From a virus: a stretch of DNA of 64,000 nt. The notes below the pieces were generated by a model. The model made no database searches, was not told where the DNA came from, and worked only from the letters and a program-made list of their open reading frames with translations. Positions 44,910 through 60,642 of this stretch are shown here, one piece after another. A program made the translations under genes and the position numbers. The stretch is from IMG/VR virus record IMGVR_UViG_3300048838_001252, positions 18,446 to 82,445 of that record, one strand, 5' to 3'. Numbering within the stretch: the first letter of the stretch is position 1; every line of letters begins with the position of its first letter.

Positions 44910-45113
44910 ATGAGCAGACTACTTGAAATTTACGAAGGCTGGAAAAATTACACGTTTCCAAATGCTGAAGTTGAAAAGCAAGCCAAGGAAAGAATGAAAA
45001 TTTGTATAGACTGTAAAATGATAAAGAAAAATAACGTCTGCATGATGTGCGGTTGTTATATGCCAGCCAAGGTCAGAAGTCCAAAATCCAGTTGTAAGTT
45101 AAAAAAATGGTAG
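44910..45113 (+). CDS. Small Cys-rich protein
   Basis: R..IC..C...C..CGC...AK.....SC...KW. Confidence 0.65.
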   Translation: MSRLLEIYEGWKNYTFPNAEVEKQAKERMKICIDCKMIKKNNVCMMCGCYMPAKVRSPKSSCKLKKW

Positions 45114-45114
45114 T

Positions 45115-45531: not shown

Positions 45532-45535
45532 CTTT

Positions 45536-46189: not shown

Positions 46190-46261
46190 TTTTAATAATA
46201 AATACTTATAACTTTATATAAAATCAAAAACATTTTTGTCACTTGAAAGTATTTATGTAAA

Positions 46262-46417
46262 GAAAGTCATTGCTTAATTTAGAATTAAGTTAGGTCTGAT
46301 AAAGTCAGGAATGATTTTTAAAATTAAATACCACATCGCCCGACAGGGGTTAGGTAAAATTTTAAGAACTTGACTTCAAAATTATAATTGCATCACAGTG
46401 TGGTGCAATTATTTTTT
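46262..46417 (+). ncRNA. Candidate late small RNA
   Basis: Late motif at 46249, no ORF, several hairpins, terminator AATTGCATCAC/GTGGTGCAATT+T-run. Confidence 0.45.
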
Positions 46418-46446
46418 AAAATATTTTTCATTTTTTTTGAAAAAAG

Positions 46447-46477
46447 TTTGTATTTATGATTTTAATGCATATATTTG
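46447..46477 (+). promoter_or_regulatory. Bacteroidota housekeeping promoter for tRNA array 1
   Basis: TTTG-N19-TATATTTG. Confidence 0.8.
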
Positions 46478-46520
46478 CATCGAAGTTTTTAGTTAAACAT
46501 AGTTGTTAGAGTTTTGAGTT

Positions 46521-46595
46521 ATGAAAAATTTAGTGTACATAGTGCCCCAACCGCAACAACATCCACAGGATGGTGAATGGGGAAAGTACGCTTAA
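46521..46595 (+). CDS. Attenuator leader peptide 1, MKNLVYIVPQPQQHPQDGEWGKYA
   Basis: Run CCC CAA CCG CAA CAA CAT CCA CAG; lies between promoter and terminator. Confidence 0.8.
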   Translation: MKNLVYIVPQPQQHPQDGEWGKYA

Positions 46596-46622
46596 ATTTT
46601 TCGTGAAAGTTTAAGGTGAAGT

Positions 46623-46654
46623 AGACCCCATTCTGAAAAGAGTGGGGTTTTTTT
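46623..46654 (+). terminator. Attenuator terminator 1
   Basis: AGACCCCATTCT-gaaa-AGAGTGGGGTTT+T-run; left arm can pair instead with GAATGGGG at 46575-46582. Confidence 0.85.
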
Positions 46655-46703
46655 GTAACATTTTTTTCGTTCTTTCGTATAATGAGTTTTGAAATATATA
46701 AAA

Positions 46704-47135
46704 ATGAATAAGATTTGTACAAAATGTAAGAGTTCTTTGAATATTGATGAATTTCCCATTGTTAATGGAAAAACAAAAAAACGTAGTTCAATGTGTTTGA
46801 CGTGTAAAAGAGAGTATGATAGGGAATATCATAAGAAATATGCCGAAAAACGTAATGAACTAAAAAGAAAAACACAATTAAAGAATAGACTTAGAAATAG
46901 AAAGTTTATTGTTGATTATTTAAAAGAAAATCCGTGCGTTGATTGCGGGGAAAATGATTTTATTGTGCTTGAATTTGACCACAAATACGATAAAAAATTT
47001 AACCTTGCTGACGCAGCCAGACGTGGGTATTCTTTGAAAACAATAAAAAAAGAAATTGAAAAGTGTGATGTTGTTTGTGCCAATTGTCATAGACGCAGAA
47101 CAGCAAAACAATTTAATTATTATATCAGGGTGTGA
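46704..47135 (+). CDS. HNH endonuclease (zinc-binding)
   Basis: C..C, C.DCG, LEFDH, KC.VVCANCH. Confidence 0.85.
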   Translation: MNKICTKCKSSLNIDEFPIVNGKTKKRSSMCLTCKREYDREYHKKYAEKRNELKRKTQLKNRLRNRKFIVDYLKENPCVDCGENDFIVLEFDHKYDKKFNLADAARRGYSLKTIKKEIEKCDVVCANCHRRRTAKQFNYYIRV

Positions 47136-47219
47136 GCGAGAGGTTGAAGCTACTGGTCTTGGAAACCAGTGACGGCACAAAGGCGTTGTCGTCCGTGGGT
47201 TCGAACCCCACCACCCTGA
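47126..47219 (+). tRNA. tRNA-Pro(TGG) with long variable arm (atypical)
   Basis: CAGGGTG/CACCCTG-A acceptor, CTGGT-CTTGGAA-ACCAG, 7-bp variable stem. Confidence 0.7.
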
Positions 47220-47295
47220 CAAACCGCCCCAAACGGTATATAAAATTGTAATCAAGCAGTGCGCATTTAGTGCTAATTACATATTTGGGACACAT

Positions 47296-47371
47296 GGTGA
47301 TTGTAGAGGAATTGGTAGACTCACCTGACTGTGAATCAGGAATCTTGCGGGTTCAAGTCCCGTCTTTCACC
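47296..47371 (+). tRNA. tRNA-His(GTG)
   Basis: CCTGA-CTGTGAA-TCAGG, G-1, C73. Confidence 0.85.
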
Positions 47372-47400
47372 CAAATAGTGTTCATTGAAATATTGTTTTT

Positions 47401-47473
47401 CGGGATGTGGTGTAGTTGGTAACATGCGTGCTTTGGGAGCATGAGACCGTGGGTTCGAGTCCCGCCATCCCGA
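47401..47473 (+). tRNA. tRNA-Pro(TGG)
   Basis: CGGGATG/CATCCCG, CGTGC-TTTGGGA-GCATG. Confidence 0.9.
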
Positions 47474-47475
47474 CT

Positions 47476-47549
47476 GTGTTAGTGGACTGTTGGTTTGTCC
47501 GTCAAGATTGTGACTCTTGTTGACGGGGGTTCGATTCCCCTCTAACACC
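47476..47549 (+). tRNA. tRNA-His(GTG)
   Basis: GTGTTAG/CTAACAC-C, CAAGA-TTGTGAC-TCTTG. Confidence 0.8.
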
Positions 47550-47565
47550 CAAAAATACATGATAT

Positions 47566-47638
47566 TGTCTCATGGTGTAATTGGCAACACGTTTGACTCT
47601 GAATCAAAAGAGTGGGGGTTCGAAACCCTCTGAGACAA
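47566..47638 (+). tRNA. tRNA-Gln(CTG)
   Basis: TGTCTCA/TGAGACA, TTTGA-CTCTGAA-TCAAA. Confidence 0.9.
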
Positions 47639-47643
47639 CAAAT

Positions 47644-47752
47644 GGTCTTCTGGTGGAATTGGAAGACATACCCTTTAAGGGGGCGAAGGTAATAACAGGT
47701 GTTCCAATAGAACAGAATAACTTCATTGCAGGTTCGAATCCTGTGAAGACCA
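47644..47752 (+). ncRNA. tRNA-like RNA with truncated anticodon arm and large insert
   Basis: GGTCTTC/GAAGACC acceptor, normal D and T arms, CCCT-TTAA-GGGG mini hairpin. Confidence 0.55.
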
Positions 47753-47797
47753 CGAATGCCGAAATGCGGAGCAGAAATGCGCCAAATTACGGAATAT

Positions 47798-47878
47798 TAT
47801 CCTCTGGCAGAATGGTTATTGCATCGCCCTTTGAAGGCGACACCGAAAGGTTTGCAGGTTCGAGTCCTGCGGGGATAA
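47798..47878 (+). tRNA. tRNA-Gln(TTG) with variable arm (atypical)
   Basis: TATCCTC/GGGGATA, TCGCC-CTTTGAA-GGCGA, ACC-GAAA-GGT arm. Confidence 0.75.
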
Positions 47879-47924
47879 CAAAAAATTTTGAAAATTCAAT
47901 TTTTTTTCTACCTTTGTAAAAAAT

Positions 47925-47997
47925 TGACCTGTGGTGTAATTGGCAACACGTCAGATTTTGGTTCTGAAGTCTCTGAGTTCGAGTCTCAGCAGGTCAA
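47925..47997 (+). tRNA. tRNA-Gln(TTG)
   Basis: TGACCTG/CAGGTCA, TCAGA-TTTTGGT-TCTGA; TACCTTTG promoter-like site at 47909. Confidence 0.9.
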
Positions 47998-48013
47998 CTA
48001 ATTTTCTTGGAAT

Positions 48014-48241
48014 ATGGATGAATTAGAAATATTACGAAAAGAAAACGAAGATTTAAAAGACAAACTAACCGATTTGACTTTCGAATTGAATTACAATAAA
48101 CAAACGGAGTTAATTGAATTCGTTCGTGAATTATATCAATCATTAGGCAATGTTGGTAAAAATCTTACAAAAAAAGAATTGGTTGAAAATCTGAGAAACT
48201 ATATTAGAGAGTTTACAAAAAATAATAAAATACAATTATGA
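48014..48241 (+). CDS. Hypothetical coiled-coil protein
   Basis: ORF track. Confidence 0.55.
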   Translation: MDELEILRKENEDLKDKLTDLTFELNYNKQTELIEFVRELYQSLGNVGKNLTKKELVENLRNYIREFTKNNKIQL

Positions 48242-48672
48242 GTTACAATTTATTTCTTGACGATGTTCGTATGCCGAAGGATGCCTTCGAATACATGAAA
48301 CAACCAATTTATATTTCGGTTGAATGGATTGTTGTCAGGAATTATTATGCCTTCATCACACTAATTGAGAATAAGGGTGTCCCGGAAATCATATCGTTTG
48401 ACCACGACCTTGCCGATGAGCATTACGATTATCAAGAACAGTTTGGCAACAACGAAATCTACGATGTTATGACCGAAAAAACCGGATATCATTGTGCAAA
48501 GTGGCTTATTGATTACTGTATTGATAATGAAAAGGAACTTCCTGCCGAAATCATCATTCATTCAATGAATCCTGCAGGAAGTATGAACATCAAGTCATTA
48601 TTTAACACCTACATCAAAGTACATGGAAAAAAGCCAATTGATGTTTATGTATTACCTTCTTCCAGAAGATGA
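48238..48672 (+). CDS. Cyclic-phosphate-processing receiver-like domain protein
   Basis: LFLDD.R.P, ISFDHDL, TGY.CAKW, IHSMNP.G. Confidence 0.75.
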   Translation: MSYNLFLDDVRMPKDAFEYMKQPIYISVEWIVVRNYYAFITLIENKGVPEIISFDHDLADEHYDYQEQFGNNEIYDVMTEKTGYHCAKWLIDYCIDNEKELPAEIIIHSMNPAGSMNIKSLFNTYIKVHGKKPIDVYVLPSSRR

Positions 48673-49518
48673 ACGGCTTGAACCAGTAGAACTTCCTGTA
48701 CTTCTATTTACTGTCCCACTATTTGAACTCCTTGATTGCGTTGGTTGTGAATAACTACGTGGCGTTGTATTTGTCGTTCTATTTGTCGGTGCAACTGACG
48801 GTGCTCTTGTCGGTGCAGTACGTGAATATGAGGGAGCAGTTGAGGGTGCTCTTGAGGGAGCAGTTCTCGTTGGTGTACTATAAGTACGTGATTGAGTACT
48901 TGTAGTTGTACGTGTTGTTGTACTTCGAGTTGTATTAGTATTATTATATGCTGGACGTGTGCTCATGCGTGGTGAACTATAGGTCGGCTTGTAAGTTCTC
49001 GCATCATCAGTGCGAGTTTCTTGTCTCTGTAGAGTAGATGTTCTCCTTTGTGGTTGATTATAAACAGACCTACTTGAAGTCACATATCTATTTCTATGAC
49101 CGTAATTATAGCTAACATATTGTCTATTATGACCCCAATACCCATAATTATAGCTAATATAGTATCTATTGTAGTGCCAATAGTTATATCTATAATAAGG
49201 AGTGTACCAGTAATCATAGAAGAAAGGGTCGTAATAACTATAATATGGCTGATAATAGTATGGGTATCGGTAGCCGAAAGTCAATAAAAAACGATAATTT
49301 GGCTCGTTATAATCTCTACAATAATTGTTAATTATCACTGGTTCAGATTTTTCCTTAACAACAATATAAACAGTATCTATTTTTGTTGTGTCAGGAGTAC
49401 CATATAATTCTTTGTCTTTCTCCAGACGATATTTCTCGTAATTTGAGAGTTCTCTTTCCTGTGCAATTAATGTAAATGCAAAGAGAATTGCGAGTAGTGT
49501 TAATAGTATCTTTTTCAT
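48652..49518 (-). CDS. Secreted protein with Tyr-rich core and Ser/Thr/Arg-rich tail
   Basis: Signal peptide ending LIA-Q; YYxPYY repeats; SSGRR end. Confidence 0.65.
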   Translation of the reverse strand: MKKILLTLLAILFAFTLIAQERELSNYEKYRLEKDKELYGTPDTTKIDTVYIVVKEKSEPVIINNYCRDYNEPNYRFLLTFGYRYPYYYQPYYSYYDPFFYDYWYTPYYRYNYWHYNRYYISYNYGYWGHNRQYVSYNYGHRNRYVTSSRSVYNQPQRRTSTLQRQETRTDDARTYKPTYSSPRMSTRPAYNNTNTTRSTTTRTTTSTQSRTYSTPTRTAPSRAPSTAPSYSRTAPTRAPSVAPTNRTTNTTPRSYSQPTQSRSSNSGTVNRSTGSSTGSSRSSSGRR

Positions 49519-49603
49519 GACTTGTGTGTTTTTAATTAAAAGGCAATTAACGTGCCAGATTTTTTATAAATAGATTGGTATTTATGTAAAAAATATTCTT
49601 TCA

Positions 49604-50191
49604 ATGAAACAAAATGATAAAGAAAGGCTTTTTGAAGTCATGCATAAAGTTGCTGGACTACCATTAATCAATGAGAATATTGAAGAAAACAATGTTCCAA
49701 AATTAGGTTCTGTATATAAGGAAGGGGAAAGCTATCTTTGGAAAAACCAAAAAGTATTTGTCGATGAAAATAAAGAAACATTAATATTTGAACTTTTAAT
49801 TTCTGAGGTCATAAAATATGTTGCACCGGAATTAACACAGAAAATGAATATAGTTGGTAATCAAGTATTAAATTTACCATCATTTGACGACCAATTAACT
49901 CGAAATCAAGAATATTCGTCCATGTATCGACAATCGGGTGGTGATGAATTCTATAAAAAATACGATAAAATAAGTAAAACAATCTATAGAATCTTAAATT
50001 ATAACATCAATCTTACGGTGGTTATGGAAAAATCTCAAGCCAACCCCAAAGACTTTGTTCCTGTTGAACATATTTCAGGATTTAACAAAGCCATTGAAGA
50101 AATTAGTAAAGTTTTTAATGTTAATAAAATTGATTTAAGTATTGATATTGGAAAATTGTTACAGAAAAATTTTATAGAAATTGACAATTAA
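49604..50191 (+). CDS. Putative internal head protein (RLFEVM leader)
   Basis: MKQNDKERLFEVMHKVAGLPLINE; late motif at 49578. Confidence 0.6.
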   Translation: MKQNDKERLFEVMHKVAGLPLINENIEENNVPKLGSVYKEGESYLWKNQKVFVDENKETLIFELLISEVIKYVAPELTQKMNIVGNQVLNLPSFDDQLTRNQEYSSMYRQSGGDEFYKKYDKISKTIYRILNYNINLTVVMEKSQANPKDFVPVEHISGFNKAIEEISKVFNVNKIDLSIDIGKLLQKNFIEIDN

Positions 50192-50202
50192 ATACATGAT
50201 TT

Positions 50203-51234
50203 ATGAAACAAAATGATAAACAAAGACTTTTTGAAGTCATGACAAGGCTCGATAAAACATTCAAACCCAAATTGAATGAAGAAACATTTCGTGATAAAAA
50301 TTTCAAGTTTCATGAAGGAGATGAAGTTACGTTTTTAAAAGACGGAAAACAAATTGATGGTATTATTTCAGATTATGATTATCATATGATGACTTGGAAA
50401 CCCACATATAATATTGATTATATGCAAGATGGTAGAAAAATGACCATAATTGGTGTTTCAGAGGATAACATTACACTAAAAAAATCCGGGTCAGAAGAAG
50501 AGTATCAAAAAAGATTTAATCAAAATAAAATGATACATAAAATGCAAGATGGTTTAGAAGAAGAAGCAAACAACAACCAATATTTTCCAATAACAACACC
50601 TGTTAGTAGTGAAGACGATAAATTATTTACCGGATTGGTTAATCAGGGAATTGATTCGCATCTTGAAGGATTCACCAAAAGTACATTTGATGTAAAAGAT
50701 AGTGGTTTGGGAAAACGTAGGGTTTTTAATTTCCACACATCGGAACTTCCAATATTATTAAGAAGACTTGAAGAACTTGGAACGGAAGAAGCACTCCAAT
50801 GGAAAGACGATATTGAAAATTATGATAATAATATCAATGAAATGAATATTGGAGAAATGAGAGATGATGAATTTAAATATTTTCATCAAAGCGAAGGAAC
50901 ACCAATTACTAAACATAATGTTCTTGATTGGTTAAGAGACCATCCAGAAGATTTTGATAAATATAAACATTTATTAAATCCAAAGAGTACTGATACCATG
51001 AGACGTTTATTAATTACGCATCCTCAATTCGTCAATAAATTAAATTGGTATTTTAATCGTTTGGGTAGTGTTGACCTTAATCATATGTTAAATAAACGAC
51101 CAGAATTAATTGATGCAGTCGAATTACCATTAGAACATTTAGGTAGGAGAGATTTATTCTCGATATTGAAAAATCATCCTGAATTAAATAATCACCCTAA
51201 ACTACAACAAATAAAACAAAAATACGTAATATAA
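50203..51234 (+). CDS. Putative internal head protein (RLFEVM leader)
   Basis: MKQNDKQRLFEVMTRLDKTFKPKLNEE. Confidence 0.6.
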   Translation: MKQNDKQRLFEVMTRLDKTFKPKLNEETFRDKNFKFHEGDEVTFLKDGKQIDGIISDYDYHMMTWKPTYNIDYMQDGRKMTIIGVSEDNITLKKSGSEEEYQKRFNQNKMIHKMQDGLEEEANNNQYFPITTPVSSEDDKLFTGLVNQGIDSHLEGFTKSTFDVKDSGLGKRRVFNFHTSELPILLRRLEELGTEEALQWKDDIENYDNNINEMNIGEMRDDEFKYFHQSEGTPITKHNVLDWLRDHPEDFDKYKHLLNPKSTDTMRRLLITHPQFVNKLNWYFNRLGSVDLNHMLNKRPELIDAVELPLEHLGRRDLFSILKNHPELNNHPKLQQIKQKYVI

Positions 51235-51289
51235 AAACACGTTAATTATCAATCATTTATAAAAAAAATAAAAAATAATTTAAAAAAAG

Positions 51290-51320
51290 TTTGGAATTGT
51301 TGTAACATTTTATACCTTTG
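51290..51320 (+). promoter_or_regulatory. Bacteroidota housekeeping promoter for tRNA array 2
   Basis: TTTG-N19-TACCTTTG; overlapping TGTAAC-N17-CGTAT. Confidence 0.75.
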
Positions 51321-51361
51321 TAACGTATTTAGATAAAAACGATTTAATTATAAAAAAGAAA

Positions 51362-51457
51362 ATGAAAAATTTACTCGACATATTAATGGTAGCGGTAGCC
51401 TTGGAAGCAGACCTATTATGGGTGGCTGATGAGGATATGCTATGCGGAGTCGGGTAA
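51362..51457 (+). CDS. Attenuator leader peptide 2, MKNLLDILMVAVALEADLLWVADEDMLCGVG
   Basis: 23 of residues 4-27 are L/D/M/V/A/E/W; last codons carry the antiterminator strand. Confidence 0.8.
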   Translation: MKNLLDILMVAVALEADLLWVADEDMLCGVG

Positions 51458-51493
51458 TAAAAGTTTTTTTAATACCTCCTTTCTTTTAAAAAG

Positions 51494-51531
51494 AAAACCC
51501 GACTCCCCGAAAAAGTCGGGTTTTTTGTTTT
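51494..51531 (+). terminator. Attenuator terminator 2
   Basis: AAAACCCGACT/AGTCGGGTTTT+T-run; competing 10-bp pair GGAGTCGGGT(51446-55)/ACCCGACTCC(51497-506). Confidence 0.88.
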
Positions 51532-51561
51532 GGGGGTGGTTCTTTGACATGTTGGAAATTT

Positions 51562-51636
51562 GGTGCTGTAGTTCAGCTTGGTTAGAATGCCTGCCTGTCA
51601 CGCAGGAGGTCGTGGGTTCGAGTCCCATCAGCACCG
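51562..51636 (+). tRNA. tRNA-Asp(GTC)
   Basis: CCTGC-CTGTCAC-GCAGG, canonical. Confidence 0.92.
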
Positions 51637-51711
51637 CAAATGGTCTTCTCTGGAAGTGCACAACTATTCGTGATATCAAATAGTCTCGAATCCAGAGGTG
51701 ACCGCCACATT

Positions 51712-51789
51712 GGTCTTATGTGCTTGACTGGCGTGCAGGATTTGGGTTGTCGCCCCACAAAAACGAGGGTTCGAATCCCTCTAAGACCG
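51712..51789 (+). tRNA. tRNA-Asp(GTC), divergent
   Basis: GGTCTTA/TAAGACC-G, TGGG-TTGTCGC-CCCA; odd D arm. Confidence 0.6.
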
Positions 51790-51931
51790 CAATGCTTTGC
51801 TGTCGGCTCATACTTAGAGGGTATGGGGTACGAAGATACACGGGTTAGTGTAATAAACACGTCTGCTTAATAACCAGATAACTGTGACATGAAAAAGTCA
51901 TCATCCGTAACAAGTGGCAAAGTATTTCAAC

Positions 51932-52001
51932 GATTCCGTAGTGTAATGGTTAACATCCCGCACTGTCTATGCGGGGAAGGGGTTCGAGTCCCACGGGGTC
52001 G
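51932..52001 (+). tRNA. tRNA-Asp(GTC)
   Basis: CCGCA-CTGTCTA-TGCGG. Confidence 0.7.
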
Positions 52002-52016
52002 GCAAAATTTAAAACA

Positions 52017-52127
52017 ATGAAAAAGAAAGAAACATCTGGAATCTCCAGAAAAAAGGTTGAGTTTAAATTAATTTCAAAGGAAGAACTTCAGAAAAATAGA
52101 AGTAATGCCTACGAATATTTGGTTTAA
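52017..52127 (+). CDS. Small basic peptide (36 aa)
   Basis: MKKKETSGISRKKVEFKLISKEELQKNRSNAYEYLV after A-rich upstream sequence. Confidence 0.35.
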   Translation: MKKKETSGISRKKVEFKLISKEELQKNRSNAYEYLV

Positions 52128-52148
52128 GTCTGGAATTTCCAGACAATC

Positions 52149-52249
52149 TACCGTTTTAGCAGTAAAAAGTGTAATATATGATACTTTTAGTTAACATTTT
52201 AGCCAAAAGTACCGTTTTAACAGTAAAAAGTGCAATATATGATACTTTT
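52149..52249. repeat. Two 40-bp direct repeats, 61-bp period
   Basis: TACCGTTTTA(G/A)CAGTAAAAAGTG(T/C)AATATATGATACTTTT. Confidence 0.8.
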
Positions 52250-52413
52250 GCATGCAAATACATATAATTGCATAAAAACAATTAAATTCATATGCTTTTG
52301 CATATAAAAGATAGTGATGACCGATGTAAAAAACTGCACGAGAAACAGACACGAGTGGGTTAAGAGATGTTTTAATACTCACAAGGGTTGCCAGTACCCA
52401 AGGTCATCCAAAT

Positions 52414-52488
52414 GCTGCGGTTGGCAAATTAGGTTAAGCCACCAGACCTTCAATCTGGTCATTGCGGGTTCGATTCCCGTCCGCAGTA
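52414..52488 (+). tRNA. tRNA-Glu(TTC), C33 variant
   Basis: CCAGA-CCTTCAA-TCTGG. Confidence 0.7.
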
Positions 52489-52537
52489 CCCTTGGTCGTT
52501 TTCTGTACTTTCTCGTATTTATGGGAAAGTATAGATT

Positions 52538-53200
52538 ATGGCAAGAAAAGAAAAGAAGTATCATTTAATCTACAAGACCACGAATATCTTAACTGGTCGA
52601 TATTATTATGGAATGCATAGCACCGATAATCTCGATGATGGTTATTTGGGGTCAGGTAAGAGATTAAAATACTCAATTAATAAATATGGCAAGGATGTTC
52701 ATAAACGAGAAATTGTTGAATTTTGTTCAAATCGTGAATTATTGAATAACAAAGAAAAAGAAGTTATCACCCTCAATGAAATAGGAAAAAAAGATTGTAT
52801 GAATTTAATTGTTGGTGGTCAAGGTGGTGATGGTGGATTAAGCAATGTATCACCAGAAAAAATTCAAAACATTCGCAAAGGTGCATCAGATTTCATGAAC
52901 AGACTATGGAAAGACCCAAAATTTATTGAAGGTCATAAACAAAGGACAATAGAGATTTTAAAGAAAAGACATCAAAGGGGTGAGGTTAAATATGATACGT
53001 TCACAGGAAAAAAACATAGTGAGGAAACTAAGATAAAAATGAGTAATCTTAAAAGAGGAAAAGGTGTTGGTAATAATAATTCACAATTTGGTACTTGTTG
53101 GATAACAAAAAACGGTAATGATAAAAAAATAAAAAAAGAATACCTTCAAGAATATCTTTCTGAAGGTTGGATTAAGGGTAGATATGTTCGGGTCTTCTAA
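52538..53200 (+). CDS. GIY-YIG (Seg-like) homing endonuclease
   Basis: IYKTTN...YYYGMHS....DGYLGSG; GKKHSEETK; late motif at 52515. Confidence 0.85.
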   Translation: MARKEKKYHLIYKTTNILTGRYYYGMHSTDNLDDGYLGSGKRLKYSINKYGKDVHKREIVEFCSNRELLNNKEKEVITLNEIGKKDCMNLIVGGQGGDGGLSNVSPEKIQNIRKGASDFMNRLWKDPKFIEGHKQRTIEILKKRHQRGEVKYDTFTGKKHSEETKIKMSNLKRGKGVGNNNSQFGTCWITKNGNDKKIKKEYLQEYLSEGWIKGRYVRVF

Positions 53201-53257
53201 CGGTCAGGAATCTGGGTTTTCATCCCAGCAATCGGGGTTCGATTCCCCGTCCGAATA
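53186..53257 (+). tRNA. tRNA-Glu(TTC)
   Basis: CTGGG-TTTTCAT-CCCAG; overlaps endonuclease stop codon. Confidence 0.85.
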
Positions 53258-53267
53258 CAAATCAATC

Positions 53268-53341
53268 GCTTCCTTAACTCAGTCCGGGAGAGTGTTTGCT
53301 CGACATGCAAAAAGTCGTAGGTTCAAATCCTACAGGAAGTA
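53268..53341 (+). tRNA. tRNA-Val(GAC), C33 variant
   Basis: TTTGC-TCGACAT-GCAAA. Confidence 0.8.
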
Positions 53342-53463
53342 CAAAAAATGCCGTAAACTTGGGATAACATTCTCTTAAAAGGAAACCGGAGTAGCGAATA
53401 GCTTAAAGCGAAGGGGTTTCATAGTGAGCGGTAACAGCGAAAAGTTAGCCACTTAGTAGTTGT

Positions 53464-53532
53464 TGGGTGATAGTGTAGTGGTAGCACGCCCGTGTGAAAA
53501 CGGGTAGGTCGGGTTCGAGTCCCAACACCCCT
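53464..53532 (+). pseudogene. Degenerate tRNA (anticodon uncertain)
   Basis: D and T arms present; CCCGT-GTGAAA-ACGGG 6-nt loop; weak acceptor. Confidence 0.5.
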
Positions 53533-53536
53533 TAAT

Positions 53537-53611
53537 GCTTCCTTAACTCAGTTGGTTCAGAGTGCCACCCTTACAAGGTGGAAGTCGTAGGTTCGACCCC
53601 TACAGGAAGCA
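53537..53611 (+). tRNA. tRNA-Val(TAC)
   Basis: CCACC-CTTACAA-GGTGG. Confidence 0.9.
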
Positions 53612-53619
53612 CAACTAAT

Positions 53620-53700
53620 TGCAATGGTTCTTAACGGGTTCGATTCCCGCTCGTCAGAAGTAATTACCTGATGGGATGGTGTGAAATGGTACGACACAAA
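53620..53700 (+). ncRNA. Circularly permuted tRNA-like RNA (Y-RNA/YrlA-like topology)
   Basis: T arm, then loop-closed acceptor-like stem, then D arm. Confidence 0.5.
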
Positions 53701-53701
53701 T

Positions 53702-53776
53702 AGTCCCTTAGTTTAGTTGGTAAAAACGTCTGGCTTACATCCAGAAGATGCACTGGTTCGAATCCAGTAGGGACTA
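53702..53776 (+). tRNA. tRNA-Val(TAC)
   Basis: TCTGG-CTTACAT-CCAGA. Confidence 0.88.
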
Positions 53777-53788
53777 CAAAATAAATTT

Positions 53789-53870
53789 CTCGCAGTGTTG
53801 TAACTGGTAGCCAAGCTGGTCTAAGAAGCCAGTGTCGAAAGACGTGTGGGTTCGACTCCCACCTGCGAGA
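53789..53870 (+). tRNA. tRNA-Leu(AAG)
   Basis: CTGGT-CTAAGAA-GCCAG, GTC-GAAA-GAC variable arm, A73. Confidence 0.8.
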
Positions 53871-53876
53871 CGATAT

Positions 53877-53950
53877 GCGGACGTGCCGGAACTGGCATAC
53901 GGGTTAGTCTTAGAAACTAAATTTTGTGGGTTCGATTCCCACCGTCCGTA
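53877..53950 (+). tRNA. tRNA-Leu(TAG), short variable loop
   Basis: TTAGT-CTTAGAA-ACTAA. Confidence 0.85.
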
Positions 53951-54182
53951 CAAAGATGTTAATAAATAGTGTTGAAGGGCAGTAAGAGTGGTAATACGAC
54001 AAGTCCTAAGAACCACCACCAGTTTATTAACATTGAGAGAGGCGCATGACAGACTCAAGCAGGGGTGACTGCGTAGCCTGTACCGAGTGTTCTTAAAAGT
54101 GAAGGAGTAATACCTTCAAACACATTATTTCGAACTGCAAAGGGGTAATGGTTGAACTACTAATAAGGTACTACTCTCATTT

Positions 54183-54256
54183 GGGGTCGTGGCAAAATTG
54201 GCTAATGCACCTGCCTTGCACGCAGGGGATTGAGGGTTCGAGTCCCTTCGACTCCA
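54183..54256 (+). tRNA. tRNA-Ala(TGC)
   Basis: G3:U70, CCTGC-CTTGCAC-GCAGG. Confidence 0.92.
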
Positions 54257-54345
54257 CAAAAATGAAAGTGAATGGCACACTACCATTTAATGATTACCGA
54301 CAAGTTGAAAGAGTCTTGGGTTATAACAGCTTTCATTTTTACCAC

Positions 54346-54418
54346 GGGGCAGTGGTGACAAAGGCTAACACGATAGGTTTGCAACCTTTAGATACGGGTT
54401 CGATTCCCGTCTGCTCCA
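54346..54418 (+). tRNA. tRNA-Ala(TGC)
   Basis: G3:U70, AGG-TTTGCAA-CCT. Confidence 0.82.
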
Positions 54419-54498
54419 CAAAACTTGACAGACCCCCAAACTGTACATCGAAGTGGCGGTTTTAATACCCATGAAATGGCATGGAGTCAAGTTCTTTT

Positions 54499-54571
54499 GC
54501 CCCGTTGACGTAACTGGCAACCGTATCAGGCTTAAAATCTGAGTTTCTCAGTTCGAATCTGAGGCGGGGTA
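54499..54571 (+). tRNA. tRNA-Leu(TAA), short variable loop
   Basis: TCAGG-CTTAAAA-TCTGA. Confidence 0.82.
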
Positions 54572-54662
54572 CAAATTACCGGAAATTGCCGGATAGTAAT
54601 TAAGTACATCTGATTATCAATTAATTATGATTTTATTTTTTGCCGGATATTACCGGATATAC

Positions 54663-54735
54663 ACGTCCGTAGTTCAGTTGGTAGAATAGTGGTCTCCAAA
54701 ACCGAAGGTCGGGAGTTCGAGTCTCTCCGGGCGTG
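54663..54735 (+). tRNA. tRNA-Trp(CCA)
   Basis: GGT-CTCCAAA-ACC, G73. Confidence 0.88.
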
Positions 54736-54741
54736 CAATAT

Positions 54742-54813
54742 GTGTCTGTCATCTAATGGCTAAGATATCGGCTTCCAACCCCGATGATGAGGGTTCGACT
54801 CCTTCCAGACATG
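54742..54813 (+). tRNA. tRNA-Trp(CCA), divergent
   Basis: TCGGC-TTCCAAC-CCCGA with C:C at 31:39, G73. Confidence 0.65.
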
Positions 54814-55034
54814 CAAATTCGAAATGAAGTGGTGGTAAAAATCGCAGGTGTGTGTCAGACTCACTGTTCAAGTCCAAATTGAATACGAGACCACTGAGGG
54901 CAGAAGTGTACCCAAGAGCAATATCAGTTACTGGCACGACACCGCTTCAGAAATCCAGATAATTTTGTAACATTCCTTGTTTTTCTTCGTATAAATATCT
55001 ATTTTAGCGCAAGTATTTATGGTAAAATAAAACT

Positions 55035-55448
55035 ATGAAGAAAATATTTTTAATGATTATGTTGATAATTTTCACATTATCAGCATTTTCGCAGGAAACA
55101 TTACGAAAAAAAGAAACATACTACCAACAAGCATTTGCTTTACTTATTGGTGGTGAAACAGAAATGATATTAAAAGACCGTACACGTGTTGATATAGTAA
55201 CTGAAACACATGCGATTGAAGTCGATTTTGCTGAAAAATGGGCAGAAAGTATTGGACAAGCATTACATTATGAAGGAATGACTGGAAAAAAAGCTGGTGT
55301 TTTACTTGTAATAAAAGGACGTGAGGATGAAAGATTTCTTGATAGATTAATGGGTGTTGCAGCAAAACACGGAATTGATGTTTGGGTCTGGGATTGGACA
55401 CAGGATACTTGGAGTAAGGTTGATTATAAAATCGAATACATATATTAA
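55035..55448 (+). CDS. Signal-peptide protein with PD-(D/E)XK-like fold
   Basis: SAFS-Q signal; RVDI.T..HAIEVDF..KWAESIGQALHY. Confidence 0.6.
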   Translation: MKKIFLMIMLIIFTLSAFSQETLRKKETYYQQAFALLIGGETEMILKDRTRVDIVTETHAIEVDFAEKWAESIGQALHYEGMTGKKAGVLLVIKGREDERFLDRLMGVAAKHGIDVWVWDWTQDTWSKVDYKIEYIY

Positions 55449-56170
55449 TGTACATAATTTCAAAACATAAAGATTATTATGATGGTGTTGTCGGTACTGT
55501 TGGTATGGACAAGACACTGGTCTATGAACGTGAAAGCGAAGAAATCACTGAAGGCAAATTAATGCCAAAAGAATTTCAAGGCACACGTAATAGCGGTTGG
55601 CATGGTGTTAATCGTGACAATCCCTTTTTAAATATTGGATATGCTGATATTGATAGAAAAAAGACAAAGAAATATACCGGAAGAAGTTTTTTCATAGTAG
55701 GATTTTGTGGAAAACTCTATTTGGGTTGGAAATTATATTATGAGGTAAAGGAAGTTGTTGATAACCAATTTAAAGAAGTAGTGAAAGTTGATATCGTTTA
55801 TGGTTATGAGAACGTCAAAGACTTCATTAGAGAAAGCTACTGGAGGGGAAATCTTAATGATGATGTTGAATATGTTTTGAGTTACAACGCAATTGATATT
55901 TTCAGAAACATTAATGCACCTGTTTTTGTTTATGATACCAACAGAGATGCACCACGAAATTCAGATACGTTCTTTATAAATCCAATACTAAAGGATTGGG
56001 AATTCTATAAGGTTGTTGATAGTTTCACAGCTTTTCAGGAAATTCAAATGTTTATTGGTGGGGTGCTTGGTAGGGGTGAAAAGGAAATCGTTGTTGTTGA
56101 AGATAAATATAAGATTGCACAACACGGATTTGATAAATGGAGTTTTAGAAAAGAACCACAAAATAAATAA
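55448..56170 (+). CDS. Conserved phage hypothetical protein
   Basis: ISKHKDYYD...TAFQEIQMFI...HGFDKWSFRK. Confidence 0.7.
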   Translation: MYIISKHKDYYDGVVGTVGMDKTLVYERESEEITEGKLMPKEFQGTRNSGWHGVNRDNPFLNIGYADIDRKKTKKYTGRSFFIVGFCGKLYLGWKLYYEVKEVVDNQFKEVVKVDIVYGYENVKDFIRESYWRGNLNDDVEYVLSYNAIDIFRNINAPVFVYDTNRDAPRNSDTFFINPILKDWEFYKVVDSFTAFQEIQMFIGGVLGRGEKEIVVVEDKYKIAQHGFDKWSFRKEPQNK

Positions 56171-56173
56171 ATT

Positions 56174-56536
56174 ATGAGCGCATTATATCCACAAGACGAA
56201 AACTTTCAAAGAAGAGTACAGGAAATTATTTCTGAAAGAAAACAAGAAATTTTTTCTAAAAGACAACAAGAAAGTCAACTTTTCTCACCAAGAAAAACCA
56301 GCGATGAAATAAAAATCAGTGTTTTAACTGAAGAAAATGAAAAACTGAGAAAACAGTATGCCGACTTAGTTCAAAAGGCAAATAGATTAGTTGCTGCATA
56401 TCGAGAACTGGAAGTTGAAAATAAAGAATTAAAAGCGAAGAACAATAAACGTGATTCGGTTGTTAAAACCGTTGAGAACTCAAAGAATTTTTTCAGAAAC
56501 ATCTGGAATAATTTTATTAATTGGCTTAATACGTAA
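56174..56536 (+). CDS. Coiled-coil hypothetical protein
   Basis: ORF track, coupled. Confidence 0.55.
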   Translation: MSALYPQDENFQRRVQEIISERKQEIFSKRQQESQLFSPRKTSDEIKISVLTEENEKLRKQYADLVQKANRLVAAYRELEVENKELKAKNNKRDSVVKTVENSKNFFRNIWNNFINWLNT

Positions 56537-56796
56537 TGGAAAAAGAAATACATTCAATTGATATTATACCTGCAGTATTTGTTAAATACCGGGAAGACGG
56601 TAACGTAGTTTTAAGATGTTTACAGGGTGAAAAAACTGTTAATAGAGCATTTGAACCACACTTGTTTAAAAATATACCGGAACTAAAGTATTTATTTTTG
56701 GGAATTATAACTGGTGTTGGATACATGCAATTGAATGTTTGTGATGGAAATGAATTCGAGTACTTATTCAAGAAGAAATGGAAGGAGTTATTATGA
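56536..56796 (+). CDS. Hypothetical protein
   Basis: TAATG coupling. Confidence 0.55.
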   Translation: MEKEIHSIDIIPAVFVKYREDGNVVLRCLQGEKTVNRAFEPHLFKNIPELKYLFLGIITGVGYMQLNVCDGNEFEYLFKKKWKELL

Positions 56797-56984
56797 AAAT
56801 GATTAATGAAATAAAACAAGATATCATTGCTGCTCTTTACGATGGGCGCATAAGCGATTTATCTGACATTGGAAACGAGATTGGAATTGTAATTGGAAAA
56901 TATACTGATGATGAAAATACGATTGAAGATTTCATTCGAGGCGTAAAACACGGAGTATCGTTGGCTGACGGTACACATCCATAA
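56793..56984 (+). CDS. Hypothetical protein
   Basis: ATGA overlap with previous stop. Confidence 0.45.
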   Translation: MKMINEIKQDIIAALYDGRISDLSDIGNEIGIVIGKYTDDENTIEDFIRGVKHGVSLADGTHP

Positions 56985-57195
56985 TTTCGAAAATCATTAA
57001 TAATTAATAATATAATGGAAAAGCACGAAGAAATTTTAAAAGAATTGGAACGGAAAAGAAAGGCAAATAATCGACATTGTGAATTAAATGATTGTCCTGC
57101 AACACCATATATGGAAGGTGCAAATCGTGTTCTCGATGAAATGATTGAATTTGTTAAATGTTTAACAAATAAATGAATAAGTTCTTTAAAATAAT

Positions 57196-57559
57196 GGGGC
57201 AGACTGGTTTTGACTTCATGTCAGACTTGGTAATGTAAGCAAGTCGTAGTTGAATCGGACTACGTTAAAAAGGTTCAAAACAACAAATGCAGAGGATATA
57301 ATGTCCATTCCAACGTCTCTTACAAGAGGCAAAAGCGTTTTTGCGAGAAATACTGAACTCGCATTTGCTGCGTAGGAACAATAAAACAGTAAAAACAACG
57401 GGTAGTCATCCTGAGTTGATTTGTTCTCAAGGATGTGGCGTTGAAAAATAGAAAACTGAAAAAATAAAATATTTTGCTGGTTTAGAAAAACCGGATAAAC
57501 TTGTAGAAAACTTATTAATCACATGAAACACAGGGGTTCGACTCCCCTCTGCTCCACCA
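57196..57559 (+). ncRNA. ssrA: tmRNA
   Basis: GGGGCAG...TTGAC 5' end, GGTTCGACTCC...CTGCTCCACCA 3' end with G3:U70, tag ORF 57289-57375 ending LAFAA. Confidence 0.92.
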
Positions 57560-57577
57560 ATATTGTAAGTTAAATAA

Positions 57578-58012
57578 TTGATTATGAAACCTGATTACGA
57601 AGGAATGTTGAAAAAAATGGATGAATGGGTAGAATCTGATGATGGTAAAGCCTATTTTGAGAATCTTAGAAAGAAAAATGAGATTCAAGAAGGTCGTTAT
57701 AGACGTTTTGAAAAATGGTTAGAGCAAAATGATTTTGATACGTTAATATATAAATTGATTTATGAACACGGAGAAGAATGGCGAGAAAAGTGTTGGCATA
57801 ATGGCTGTGAAGTTTATCCAAATAATAAACTACAATTTATAATTGATTATGTTTTCGATAACTATGCACCCATTAGTGTCCCACAACTTGAAAATATGTT
57901 CACCACAGATATTAGATTTTTTAAAGGATATTATTTCAGAATAATGCACGGACAAGGTTCTGTATTTGATTTATATAATGGAGATGATTTTCAACACCTG
58001 TTAAGCGCATGA
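57578..58012 (+). CDS. Hypothetical protein
   Basis: ORF track; MHGQGS motif. Confidence 0.6.
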   Translation: MIMKPDYEGMLKKMDEWVESDDGKAYFENLRKKNEIQEGRYRRFEKWLEQNDFDTLIYKLIYEHGEEWREKCWHNGCEVYPNNKLQFIIDYVFDNYAPISVPQLENMFTTDIRFFKGYYFRIMHGQGSVFDLYNGDDFQHLLSA

Positions 58013-58320
58013 CAACATACAATAAATTAGTACGGGATAAAATAGTTAAAATATTAAAGAAATCCAGCATTGGTTATAAGTACCATATCGCTAAAGATGA
58101 TACAGAATTTCTCGAAAAACTATATGAAAAACTTCAGGAAGAAATACAAGAATTTCGTGAAAAACCAAGTCTTGAAGAATTTGCAGATATACTGCAAGTA
58201 CTGGAAGCCATTGCAAAATTCAACGAGTTTGATTTAAATAAAATTAAAGAAGCAAAAGCAAATAAACTTCATAACAAAGGCGGTTTCAATAATAGAATTA
58301 TTTTGGAAGAAACGAAATAA
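58009..58320 (+). CDS. MazG-superfamily (PRA-PH-like) pyrophosphohydrolase
   Basis: YNKLVRDKI, KL.EE..EF, EEFADI..V, K...KGGF. Confidence 0.8.
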   Translation: MTTYNKLVRDKIVKILKKSSIGYKYHIAKDDTEFLEKLYEKLQEEIQEFREKPSLEEFADILQVLEAIAKFNEFDLNKIKEAKANKLHNKGGFNNRIILEETK

Positions 58321-58350
58321 TAACTATCTTTGTTCTGTGTTTTTTGAAAT

Positions 58351-58436
58351 GGCGGGATGTCGTAATTGGTAGCCGAGACAGACTTAAAATCTGTTGAACC
58401 TTTGTGTTCGTGTGGGTTCGAGTCCCATTCCCGCTA
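58351..58436 (+). tRNA. tRNA-Leu(TAA)
   Basis: ACAGA-CTTAAAA-TCTGT with long variable arm; promoter TTTG-N19-TATCTTTG upstream. Confidence 0.9.
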
Positions 58437-58444
58437 CTAAACAT

Positions 58445-58534
58445 TTGGTGGCATTGCTACAAATTAACAAAGGCGGGTTTGGTTTCCCAACATCGGTGAA
58501 AATCGGTAACATGAGTTCGAGTCTCACCACCGAA
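58445..58534 (+). pseudogene. Degenerate tRNA-like element
   Basis: TTGGTGG/CCACCGA acceptor and TGAG-TTCGAGT-CTCA T arm; anticodon arm unclear. Confidence 0.4.
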
Positions 58535-58821
58535 TGTTTTTAAATAAAAATGATATGAAAGAAATTAAAAAAGCAATACGGAATGAAATTCGTAAGGATT
58601 GTCGTGAGGAAGCTAAGAAAATTCTTGAACTTGGTGACGATAAAGACCGTGGAGATTTTATGAAATATCATGAAGAAGATAAGGGAAACATTTGTTGTCT
58701 TGTTCTGGACTTTGCAAAGAAAAAATTAATTGAAGCCGGAAAATGGGAGTTTAATGAGAATGATTGTTTTAACGACCAGTTTAGATTTTTGGAAGATGAA
58801 GACAGTAAAGAAACTGAATAA
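58534..58821 (+). CDS. Hypothetical protein
   Basis: ORF track. Confidence 0.5.
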   Translation: MFLNKNDMKEIKKAIRNEIRKDCREEAKKILELGDDKDRGDFMKYHEEDKGNICCLVLDFAKKKLIEAGKWEFNENDCFNDQFRFLEDEDSKETE

Positions 58822-58908
58822 TGACAATTGTTGTGGGAAACCACTAAAGGTTGTTGACCCCAGAAGGAAAAAAGATTTGGGGATTAAAAAAGTAATTAAG
58901 AAGAGAAC

Positions 58909-58982
58909 GCCCGGATGACGGAACTGGCATACGTATTAGATTCAAAACCTAAGTTTTGTGGGTTCGACTCCCACTCTGGGCA
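58909..58982 (+). tRNA. tRNA-Leu(CAA), short variable loop
   Basis: TTAG(A)-TTCAAAA-(C)CTAA; body close to Leu(TAG) at 53877. Confidence 0.82.
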
Positions 58983-59069
58983 CAAATTAGTATTTATATA
59001 AAACTGCATTTTATCATGAAAGAAAAATTTAAAGTCCTGTAACGCAACTCAAATGGTGCGTTCAGGAAA

Positions 59070-59372
59070 ATGGGAAACAAAAACATTGTAGATAATACCA
59101 CGAATCGTGGTGAATTCAACCGTGCTTACAAAAGATATCTTGAAGGCAAGGGAAAAATCAGTTGTACTTATTGCCGTTATCATCGTAACGAAAACGGTAA
59201 AGGTAGAGGATATTATGGTGGATATGAAAGAACCAACGGTCATGTCAAAATAATTTATCCAAACTGGAAACTTGTTTCAAGTAACCGTAAGCAATGGATG
59301 AAAAAATCGATGAAAGTCGTTGAAAAAACTGTGCGCTGGTCAGGCGCAAAATACATCGACATTACTTGGTAA
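59070..59372 (+). CDS. Basic hypothetical protein
   Basis: C..C..H, PNWK...NRKQW. Confidence 0.55.
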   Translation: MGNKNIVDNTTNRGEFNRAYKRYLEGKGKISCTYCRYHRNENGKGRGYYGGYERTNGHVKIIYPNWKLVSSNRKQWMKKSMKVVEKTVRWSGAKYIDITW

Positions 59373-59382
59373 TGTCGATTAT

Positions 59383-59455
59383 GGCGGGATAGCTTAGTTG
59401 GTAAAGCACTTGAGTCATAACCAAGAGACCGAGGGTTCGAGTCCCTCTCCCGCTA
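59383..59455 (+). tRNA. tRNA-Met(CAT), elongator (Ile2 not excluded)
   Basis: GGCGGGA/TCCCGCT-A, CTTG(A)-GTCATAA-(C)CAAG. Confidence 0.8.
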
Positions 59456-59460
59456 CAAAT

Positions 59461-59487
59461 AAAAAACCCATCGAATTCGATGGGTTT
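59461..59487. terminator. Terminator closing tRNA array 2
   Basis: AAACCCATCGAA-TTCGATGGGTTT. Confidence 0.7.
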
Positions 59488-59501
59488 AAATTTCCAACAT
59501 G

Positions 59502-59774
59502 TTATTTCTTCTTTTTGTTCAGCCATTCGAACAATCTGTACATGCCATAGGCAGCAGATATAAACAACCAGAGTCCAAGAATTGTTTCTGCACCGGGAAC
59601 TCCTTTTTCATATATCATTGAATATGCTGTAAATATCACAACATAACTAATGGTAATCATCCAATTATTTTTAAACCATTCTTTTACTGCTCCCCATTTA
59701 GGAAGTACCCATTTTTTAATGGCTACCCATTTAGCGAGAAGCCATGTTTTAATTTTTTCCCATATTTTTTTCAT
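59502..59774 (-). CDS. Small two-TM membrane protein (holin-like?)
   Basis: Amphipathic Trp/Lys N-terminus, two TM helices, basic C-terminus. Confidence 0.5.
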   Translation of the reverse strand: MKKIWEKIKTWLLAKWVAIKKWVLPKWGAVKEWFKNNWMITISYVVIFTAYSMIYEKGVPGAETILGLWLFISAAYGMYRLFEWLNKKKK

Positions 59775-59804
59775 AATTTTCGTTTTTATATTTTTAAATA
59801 ATTT

Positions 59805-60641: not shown

Positions 60642-60642
60642 A

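Follow-up and report, generated by a model that had tools for sequence, protein, structure and literature searches.

Analysis of a 64,000-nucleotide stretch of viral DNA (IMG/VR record IMGVR_UViG_3300048838_001252, positions 18,446 to 82,445; hereafter the window) revealed two tRNA arrays, each preceded by a promoter motif, a short open reading frame (ORF) and an intrinsic terminator, an arrangement pointing to leader-peptide transcription attenuators. The window takes up the final 64 kb of a viral contig of 82,445 bases and has a G+C content of about 33%. ARAGORN called 26 tRNAs and one transfer-messenger RNA (tmRNA), all on the plus strand between 47.1 and 59.5 kb, and no others in the entire contig. 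The elements of the two predicted modules and the arrays following them are listed below in positions of the window.

46447..46477, plus strand: promoter 1, TTTG ... TATATTTG, found by a scan for the motif TTTG-N17-23-TAnnTTTG
46521..46595, plus strand: leader ORF 1, MKNLVYIVPQPQQHPQDGEWGKYA, 24 codons
46545..46568, plus strand: putative sensor core of leader 1, eight successive Pro/Gln/His codons (CCC CAA CCG CAA CAA CAT CCA CAG)
46545-46549, plus strand: predicted protector strand (region 1) of leader 1, CCCCA, pairing with UGGGG in helix 3 (85.7% paired)
46575..46582, plus strand: predicted antiterminator strand (region 2) of leader 1, GAATGGGG, codons Glu-Trp-Gly, complementary to CCCCATTC at 46626-46633
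46623..46654, plus strand: intrinsic terminator 1, hairpin 46623-46650, 5' arm CCCCATTC at 46626-46633, 3' arm GAGTGGGG at 46640-46647, T-run 46648-46654
47126..47998, plus strand: tRNA array 1, Pro(tgg), His(gtg), Pro(tgg), His(gtg), Gln(ctg), an Rfam-only tRNA-like element at 47644-47752, Gln(ttg), Gln(ttg)
51290..51320, plus strand: promoter 2, TTTG ... TACCTTTG, from the same TTTG-N17-23-TAnnTTTG scan
51362..51457, plus strand: leader ORF 2, MKNLLDILMVAVALEADLLWVADEDMLCGVG, 31 codons
51371-51379, plus strand: region 1 of leader 2, TTACTCGAC
51446-51455, plus strand: predicted antiterminator strand (region 2) of leader 2, GGAGTCGGGT, overlapping the stop codon and complementary to ACCCGACTCC
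51497..51527, plus strand: intrinsic terminator 2, arms ACCCGACT at 51497-51504 and AGTCGGGT at 51514-51521, T-run from 51521
51562..54814, plus strand: tRNA array 2, Asp x3, Glu x2, Val(gac), an odd tRNA, Val(tac) x2, Leu(aag), Leu(tag), Ala x2, Leu(taa), Trp x2
57196..59487, plus strand: distal part of the second array, tmRNA 57196-57559, Leu(taa) 58351-58437, Leu(caa) 58909-58983, Met(cat) 59383-59456, hairpin 59464-59487

The common layout of promoter, short ORF, intrinsic terminator and tRNAs, which the first-pass annotation of this DNA had described, was recovered at both arrays by the motif, ORF, hairpin and tRNA calls. Its further claims of a shared leader start and of an antiterminator strand in the last codons withstood comparison with shuffled sequences. 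The opening ATGAAAAATTTANNNNNNATA, common to both leaders, has exactly two matches in the window, both of them at the leaders, with shuffles containing 0.23 matches on average and two or more in 0/100 cases. The proposed antiterminator strand is complementary to the 5' arm of the terminator in both leaders, forming predicted duplexes of -14.6 (leader 1) and -13.9 kcal/mol (leader 2), which 3/300 and 0/300 shuffles equaled in strength, respectively. Both terminator hairpins are rich in G+C; that of leader 2 in the window was set by hand, the finder having chosen a wrong hairpin. The promoter motif, which we take to be the Bacteroidota promoter consensus (-33/-7 type), is expected by chance about twice per strand, as roughly estimated from base composition. 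The tRNA isotypes and counts called by ARAGORN correspond to those listed previously for both arrays, with the tmRNA and the odd tRNA having been omitted from that list. In total, the region between 51.5 and 59.5 kb holds Asp x3, Glu x2, Val x3 and the odd tRNA within the Val block, Leu x5, Ala x2, Trp x2, Met(cat) x1 and the tmRNA, several ORFs lying between array 2 and the tmRNA. A cmscan of positions 44000-64000 against Rfam (E <=1) returned tRNAs, the tmRNA and chance matches only, none of them over 46447-46654 or 51290-51530.

Relatives of the window were recruited with a neighboring protein of 724 amino acids (aa), yielding 52 IMG/VR loci (49-71% identity) among which the tRNA arrays are syntenic. 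Since many of these relatives lie on contigs of 200-363 kb, the lineage is one of giant phages, known from metagenomes only. Among GenBank phages, no relative was found by DNA, the matches being one tRNA-like stretch of 70 nt and chance matches, or via a 652-aa neighboring protein. Among public sequencing runs, no RNA run was listed and DNA runs share at most 0.17 of the window's words. The terminator/antiterminator pattern of the first leader (type 1) was found in 40 IMG/VR stretches and two GTDB records, both being contigs of metagenome-assembled genomes (MAGs) that resemble phage DNA. The GTDB screen of bacterial genomes for this pattern returned these two phage-like records only and gave no clue to the host. 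One scaffold carrying the type-1 attenuator (L106, JBAZIW010000001.1) is filed as a 'Candidatus Paceibacterota' MAG; it comprises 362,763 bases, the same as the IMG/VR phage record G001, and probably represents the genome of a giant phage that was binned as bacterial.

The leaders, whose conservation the initial proposal presupposed, are present in front of the corresponding arrays throughout the related IMG/VR loci, type 1 before the Pro-first array in 42/42 and type 2 before the Asp-first array in 27/27, counts that include one type-1 and four type-2 leaders added by eye beyond the regular-expression screens. The type-1 consensus reads MKNLVNI[Q/V]PQPQQHPQ..EWG.Y. and a terminator is present in 30 (type 1) and 17 (type 2) unique sequences. 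The promoter motif is found within 130 nt upstream of the leader ATG in 24/29 unique type-1 relatives and upstream in 15/17 of those of type 2. Further leaders had been predicted for the remaining amino acids. The window contig stops about where relatives place a Lys/Tyr leader; because it ends too early, such leaders were sought in relatives only, examining the tRNA regions of the five rated complete by CheckV (G001-G005). The prediction was borne out by two additional leader types. A K/Y leader (M.TFGTYYYGKKSYKK...), followed by a terminator and a Lys/Tyr array, occurs in 4/5 complete relatives, and a T/S/N/I/F/C/G/R leader (MKT...ISTSTSSRNGNGIFCS.F.GRN...), followed by a terminator and a Thr/Cys/Asn/Ile/Ser/Phe/Gly/Arg array, in 5/5. 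When an unbiased plus-strand terminator scan was filtered for an adjacent tRNA, a short ORF and a promoter motif no more than 330 nt away, these modules alone remained, amounting to two in the window, four in each of four complete relatives and three in the fifth. A fifth leader candidate in G001 (MSTRIGW..., before Gly) was rejected, having neither promoter nor terminator.

Comparison of the leaders among relatives allowed their mode of reading to be evaluated. Within the type-1 core (codons 8-16, i.e., the P/Q/H run and the preceding Val/Gln codon), the 23 unique 24-codon leaders gave proportions of synonymous (pS) and nonsynonymous (pN) change of 0.50 and 0.086, respectively (pN/pS 0.17), with CAA and CAG exchanging for one another and the four CCN codons interchanging. 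Selection on the core thus shows a three-base periodicity, which argues for the core being read as codons. Codons 17-18, directly following it, vary freely (pN/pS 4.6), and the Glu-Trp-Gly codons of the antiterminator strand are nucleotide-invariant in 23/23 leaders, synonymous positions included. This succession agrees with a translated sensor and an RNA strand behind it, and disagrees with a functional peptide or a pure RNA motif. In the 19 unique type-2 peptides, the middle residues are reordered with their L/V/A/D/E/W/M composition being retained. Residues outside this set are confined to the N-terminus and the C-terminal, antiterminator-coding tail in 12/19 peptides, the remaining 7/19 carrying one or two of them (S, N or I) mid-peptide. 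Ile and Phe together account for 31/342 of the hydrophobic residues in type-2 leaders, compared with 36% expected. From these substitution patterns, we infer that the leader ORFs are translated.

Two alternative explanations have to be weighed against this evidence. In an RNA-only switch, a protein or tRNA would bind the leader RNA directly, comparable with T-box-like or protein-mediated antitermination, the ORF being incidental and untranslated. The constraint on the Glu-Trp-Gly codons and on much of the N-terminal region, which are nucleotide-invariant or lie in helices, would be in line with such a switch, as would the ORFs of two relatives (L037 and L040) that end early with the antiterminator strand retained. 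It would not account for a core in which amino acids are fixed, synonymous change is tolerated and selection has a period of three bases, nor for type-2 cores reordered at constant composition, unlike any fixed RNA motif. Furthermore, no T-box (RF00230), His/Trp/Thr/Leu leader or other Rfam family matches either leader at E <=1, and all 47 unique leaders retain an ATG together with an in-frame stop adjoining the antiterminator strand. An RNA-only switch is consequently considered quite improbable. The second alternative regards the short ORFs as genes for small functional peptides and the hairpins as ordinary leaky gene-end terminators, the match in composition being a coincidence or by-product. 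The peptides are indeed conserved, and leader 2 looks like a hydrophobic helix with acidic residues after it, both of which would suit a peptide product. Free variation at codons 17-18 of leader 1, a C-terminus dispensable in L037 and L040, and the lack of a conserved residue order in leader 2 speak against it, and, together with the points on pairing, promoters and composition given below, render this explanation hardly credible.

Leader composition was compared with array content, background frequencies of the amino acids being taken from the long ORFs in the window. In leader 1, 8/23 residues are P/Q/H, forming one unbroken run (background 0.09, p 4.6e-4), and in leader 2, 24/30 residues belong to D/E/V/L/A/W/M (background 0.36, p 1e-6). 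The cross terms are not enriched, with leader 1 containing 7/23 residues of the array-2 set (p 0.78) and leader 2 containing 0/30 of P/Q/H, and hence the claim that each leader matches no array but its own holds for the window. Extension toward the five complete relatives showed own-array enrichment in 21/21 leader tests (p 8.6e-3 to 2.6e-9) and no enrichment of any leader for a foreign array (lowest p 0.051), the four leader types jointly covering the arrays. The term 'codon-matched', by which the leaders had first been described, applies by amino acid and not by synonymous codon, because synonymous-codon diversity exceeds expectation in only 2/21 leaders, namely leader 2 of the window (p 0.002) and of G005 (p 0.029). 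For the hairpins to be unrelated to the arrays and the ORFs to encode functional peptides, four separate coincidences of composition would be required.

The same hardware might report global translation capacity or infection stage (ribosome availability, host shut-off) and act as a timer that sets whether the tRNA blocks are expressed early or late, with leader composition mattering little. As the ORF spans both the predicted protector and the antiterminator strand, slowing anywhere within it would favor read-through. The constancy of the leaders while arrays gain and lose tRNAs, and the host-type promoters suggesting early transcription, are also compatible with a timer. Such a device has no need of four distinct leaders, each limited to the amino acids of its own array, and leaves unexplained the codon-periodic purifying selection on core amino-acid identity as well as why the hydrophobic core of leader 2 excludes Ile and Phe. 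Composition-independent timing is, in our assessment, unlikely.

The predicted RNA structures support a conditional terminator in the leader RNAs. In an unconstrained fold of leader 1, a closing helix between the initial 18 nt of the ORF and its end, the CCCCA:UGGGG pairing and the terminator all form (z -5.2). Preservation of the pairings was evaluated in two alignments consisting of 30 unique type-1 (A1) and 17 type-2 sequences (A2). Within A1, terminator 1 (3:4) is paired in 98.5% of cells and antiterminator 1 (2:3, GAATGGGG:CCCCATTC) in 99.2% of 240 cells, compared with 16-63% when slid. The closing hairpin is paired in 75.7%, with 8 pairs altered on both sides and a covariation score reached by 0/500 shuffles. 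One relative (L037) has a single position altered jointly in the antiterminator strand and both arms of the terminator, a change thus compensated on three strands, and in another (L053), the G/C run is one G or C shorter in all three strands. Within A2, pairing amounts to 92.6% for 2:3, 85.0% for 1:2 and 94.9% for the terminator. Among the 21 leaders of the window and the complete relatives, the 3' segment of the ORF is complementary to its own terminator arm in 18, with at most 3/300 shuffles reaching the observed energy, a complementarity that ORFs selected for a peptide function would not be expected to have. Specificity of the antiterminator for its own arm over those of other types is clear for type 1 only, types 2-4 having ACCCGA-type arms in common.

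Folding with a masked 'ribosome' led to the antiterminator when the stall was placed in the core, and to the terminator alone when the ribosome was placed at the stop codon. The two leaders differ in the balance of these states. In leader 1, formation of the antiterminator requires that the 3' arm has not yet been made; once this arm is present, the antiterminator is weaker than the terminator by 5.5 kcal/mol, and read-through would therefore need kinetic control. In leader 2, the antiterminator is preferred whenever its strand is free, and the minimum-energy fold without a ribosome holds the antiterminator.

The arrays follow their terminators closely, with a median distance from the T-run to the first tRNA of 45 nt (type 1, n=29) and 39 nt (type 2, n=17), and a promoter motif occurs within this gap in 1/29 type-1 and 0/17 type-2 cases. 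In the window, tRNA-Asp begins 31 nt past the end of the terminator-2 tract (set at 51530), with no promoter motif in between. In view of the lack of a promoter in the gap, the arrays would be transcribed only by terminator read-through, with possible exceptions in the window. If the hairpins merely ended peptide genes, a strong constitutive terminator would silence arrays that have no promoter of their own. As for the exceptions, a promoter-like motif at 47887-47916 precedes the last tRNA-Gln of array 1, and another at 58302-58332 precedes tRNA-Leu 58351; three relatives lack this second motif, which may be a chance occurrence. The last tRNA-Gln, Leu 58351, Leu 58909 and Met 59383 may thus be independent of the attenuators, and control of attenuator 2 over the tmRNA and the three distal tRNAs is uncertain. 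A stricter terminator scan of the plus strand from 51.5 to 59.4 kb gave a single candidate, a long interrupted hairpin at 55592-55629 inside the ORF 55448-56170, which the other terminator scan did not list.

Based on these data, we put the probability at about three in four that both elements are ribosome-dependent leader-peptide transcription attenuators placed before tRNA operons and written in the amino acids of their own array. This reading, proposed as trp/his-type attenuation in the first-pass annotation, draws on the conservation of the leaders, codon periodicity, preserved pairings, the lack of another promoter and the four matched leader types. Host RNA polymerase would start at the Bacteroidota-type promoter and transcribe the 24- or 31-codon ORF. 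If no ribosome loads, the start of the ORF would pair with its end (1:2), allowing the terminator (3:4) to form and stopping transcription before the tRNAs. A ribosome reaching the stop codon would cover the antiterminator strand, located in or next to the last codons, again leading to the terminator. A ribosome lingering on the core codons, i.e., Pro/Gln/His in leader 1 and Leu/Val/Ala/Asp/Glu/Trp/Met in leader 2, would melt the protector strand and leave the antiterminator strand free to pair with the 5' arm of the terminator (2:3), so that polymerase could enter the tRNA genes. Ordinary tRNA processing would release the tRNAs. Each tRNA block is probably made only when its codons are read slowly; both the efficiency of the terminators and their stall-dependent read-through are what we infer from sequence. 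Because the product tRNAs would relieve the signal, that is, the slow decoding of those codons, each module would represent a negative-feedback 'tRNA-on-demand' circuit.

Several observations weigh against the attenuator reading. The sequences counted among the relatives are akin, and the counts are hence not independent, representing at most four independent leader types. Covariation supporting the type-1 antiterminator rests on few events, its columns being mostly invariant, and that of type 2 does not go beyond shuffles, its score being reached in 234/500 cases for 2:3 and in 98/500 for 1:2. Antiterminator complementarity is weak in 3/21 leaders (type 2 of G003, type 4 of G004 and of G005). 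With the first 37 nt masked, full-length leader 1 favors the terminator (-31.9 kcal/mol) over the antiterminator state (-26.4 kcal/mol). Fine covariation of leader residues with array content was not found within a single leader type. Four type-1 loci (L001, L008, L014 and L023) have no His tRNA called in the array and still His in the leader, array 2 of G002 lacks Ala tRNAs, yet its leader has 3 Ala, and L029 and L052 retain only Asp and Trp in array 2 behind a full leader. The leaders match the arrays at the level of the four types and stay constant within a type despite tRNA losses. A synonymous-codon 'sampler' as a general feature was rejected, 19/21 leaders showing none. In G005 (L064, concatenated ~13526-13945), a Tyr-only array has kept the promoter and a terminator-like hairpin without a leader ORF and without Lys tRNAs; this looks like a decayed third module. 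Finally, extra tRNA would not help if the stall came from amino-acid starvation.

The last point relates to the trigger of the proposed attenuators. Any shortage would open them, be it decay or cleavage of host tRNAs or heavy demand by the phage. A trigger by loss of host tRNAs, as initially proposed, is indistinguishable at this level from plain feedback on aminoacyl-tRNA supply. We favor simple negative feedback, with defense-induced tRNA loss as one possible cause of the shortage. On a broader scale, we consider it fairly probable that this lineage runs its whole tRNA complement as four self-regulating operons, whose multivalent leaders sample the decoding of their own isotypes and jointly cover the 20 amino acids. 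If so, the sensed molecule would be the regulated product of attenuation, and isotype-specific holes in the tRNA pool, caused for instance by host anticodon nucleases or by the phage's own host shut-off, could be detected and repaired in real time. Why phages carry tRNA genes and how these are regulated are long-standing questions, and the regulatory logic is legible here from the sequence. If confirmed, the modules would extend classical attenuation to tRNA genes, provide a naturally occurring case of product-sensing feedback within the translation apparatus, and offer a concrete, testable link between phage tRNA arrays and tRNA-targeting host defenses. Being compact, they could be used inside Bacteroidota cells to report how fast the codons of particular isotypes are decoded.

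Two homing-endonuclease genes lie within this region:

46704..47135, plus strand: HNH homing-endonuclease ORF between terminator 1 and the first tRNA-Pro (phrog_2255, E 5.8e-32)
52538-53200: GIY-YIG homing endonuclease inside array 2 (phrog_314, E 4e-36)

The former corrects the first-pass account, in that an ORF intervenes between terminator 1 and the first tRNA-Pro. The HNH insert is absent from that spot in most relatives, the terminator-to-tRNA gap being at most 60 nt in 16/29; relatives with long gaps probably carry similar homing-endonuclease inserts. Just 3' of array 1 and on the same strand, 48238-48672 encodes a cREC_REC protein ('cyclic-phosphate processing receiver', PF20274, E 3.4e-22). 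The plus-strand terminator scan found no terminator between array 1 and this ORF, which could be co-transcribed with the array-1 tRNAs, and this neighbor hints at an RNA-repair context. The adjacent ORFs 49604-50191 and 50203-51234 have their N-terminus in common (MKQNDKERLFEVM / MKQNDKQRLFEVM) and differ in their bodies.

Several RNA genes of the arrays are atypical. Among these are a tRNA-Pro(tgg) of 95 nt (47126-47220), a tRNA-Gln(ttg) of 82 nt (47798-47879), a 109-nt Rfam tRNA match without an ARAGORN call (47644-47752) and the Val-block tRNA at 53462-53534, whose anticodon loop is abnormal. Comparable '???' tRNAs occupy the same places in relatives. The tmRNA at 57196-57559 (107 bits, tag AEDIMSIPTSLTRGKSVFARNTELAFAA) is kept in the relatives G001 and G003. 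After their last array, G001-G004 (L057, L059, L060, L062) carry a tRNA with a CTA anticodon, called 'Pyl' by ARAGORN, which may be an amber suppressor and would then imply TAG recoding in the lineage.

Described leader-peptide attenuators regulate genes for amino-acid biosynthesis, transport or synthetases, whereas the downstream genes of the present modules are tRNA genes. Closest in logic are the enterobacterial multivalent leaders of thr (Thr, Ile) and ilvGMEDA (Ile, Leu, Val), in addition to which trpL, hisL, pheL and leuL are known. With these leaders, the phage modules share the promoter-proximal short ORF rich in regulatory codons, the 2:3 and 3:4 arrangement together with a putative 1:2 pairing, the intrinsic terminator before the regulated genes, and the use of several amino acids per leader. 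The phage-borne modules differ from them in regulating tRNA genes rather than biosynthetic enzymes, so that the output would directly replenish the sensed molecule. A single phage leader represents as many as seven or eight amino acids, four leaders covering the code, and the phage ORF encloses both the predicted protector and the antiterminator strand, with its stop codon at or in the latter. Synthetase genes controlled by tRNA status are known from pheST, with its pheM leader, and from T-box riboswitches. These systems likewise govern a component of the translation apparatus by availability or charging of the cognate tRNA via conditional termination. Unlike the phage leaders, pheM senses one amino acid and controls a synthetase, and T-boxes bind uncharged tRNA directly with no need of a ribosome, while the genes regulated here are the tRNAs themselves.

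Among the published systems found, the closest functional counterpart is a cryptic tRNA operon, trn, of Anabaena sp. PCC 7120, which is induced by translational stress (PMC8421152) and repressed by TrcR (PMC10272220). It shares with the proposed modules a spare tRNA array that is silent and switched on when translation is impaired (PMC8421152). As portrayed there, it differs from them in being bacterial, megaplasmid-borne and under a transcriptional repressor, without isotype-sorted arrays with matched sensors; the strings 'attenuat' and 'leader' have 0 occurrences in the full texts of PMC8421152 and PMC10272220. Phage tRNAs have been reported to replace host tRNAs cleaved or depleted by tRNA-targeting defenses (PMC10264068, PMC11464382). 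Such replacement provides a rationale for on-demand expression; in their accessible parts, these papers deal with tRNA sequence and rescue, not with leader-peptide regulation of phage tRNA genes. Full-text literature searches, subscription journals and supplements excepted, brought up no description of tRNA genes under leader-peptide attenuation. The class of attenuator encountered here is a classical one; what is new is its target, the tRNA genes.

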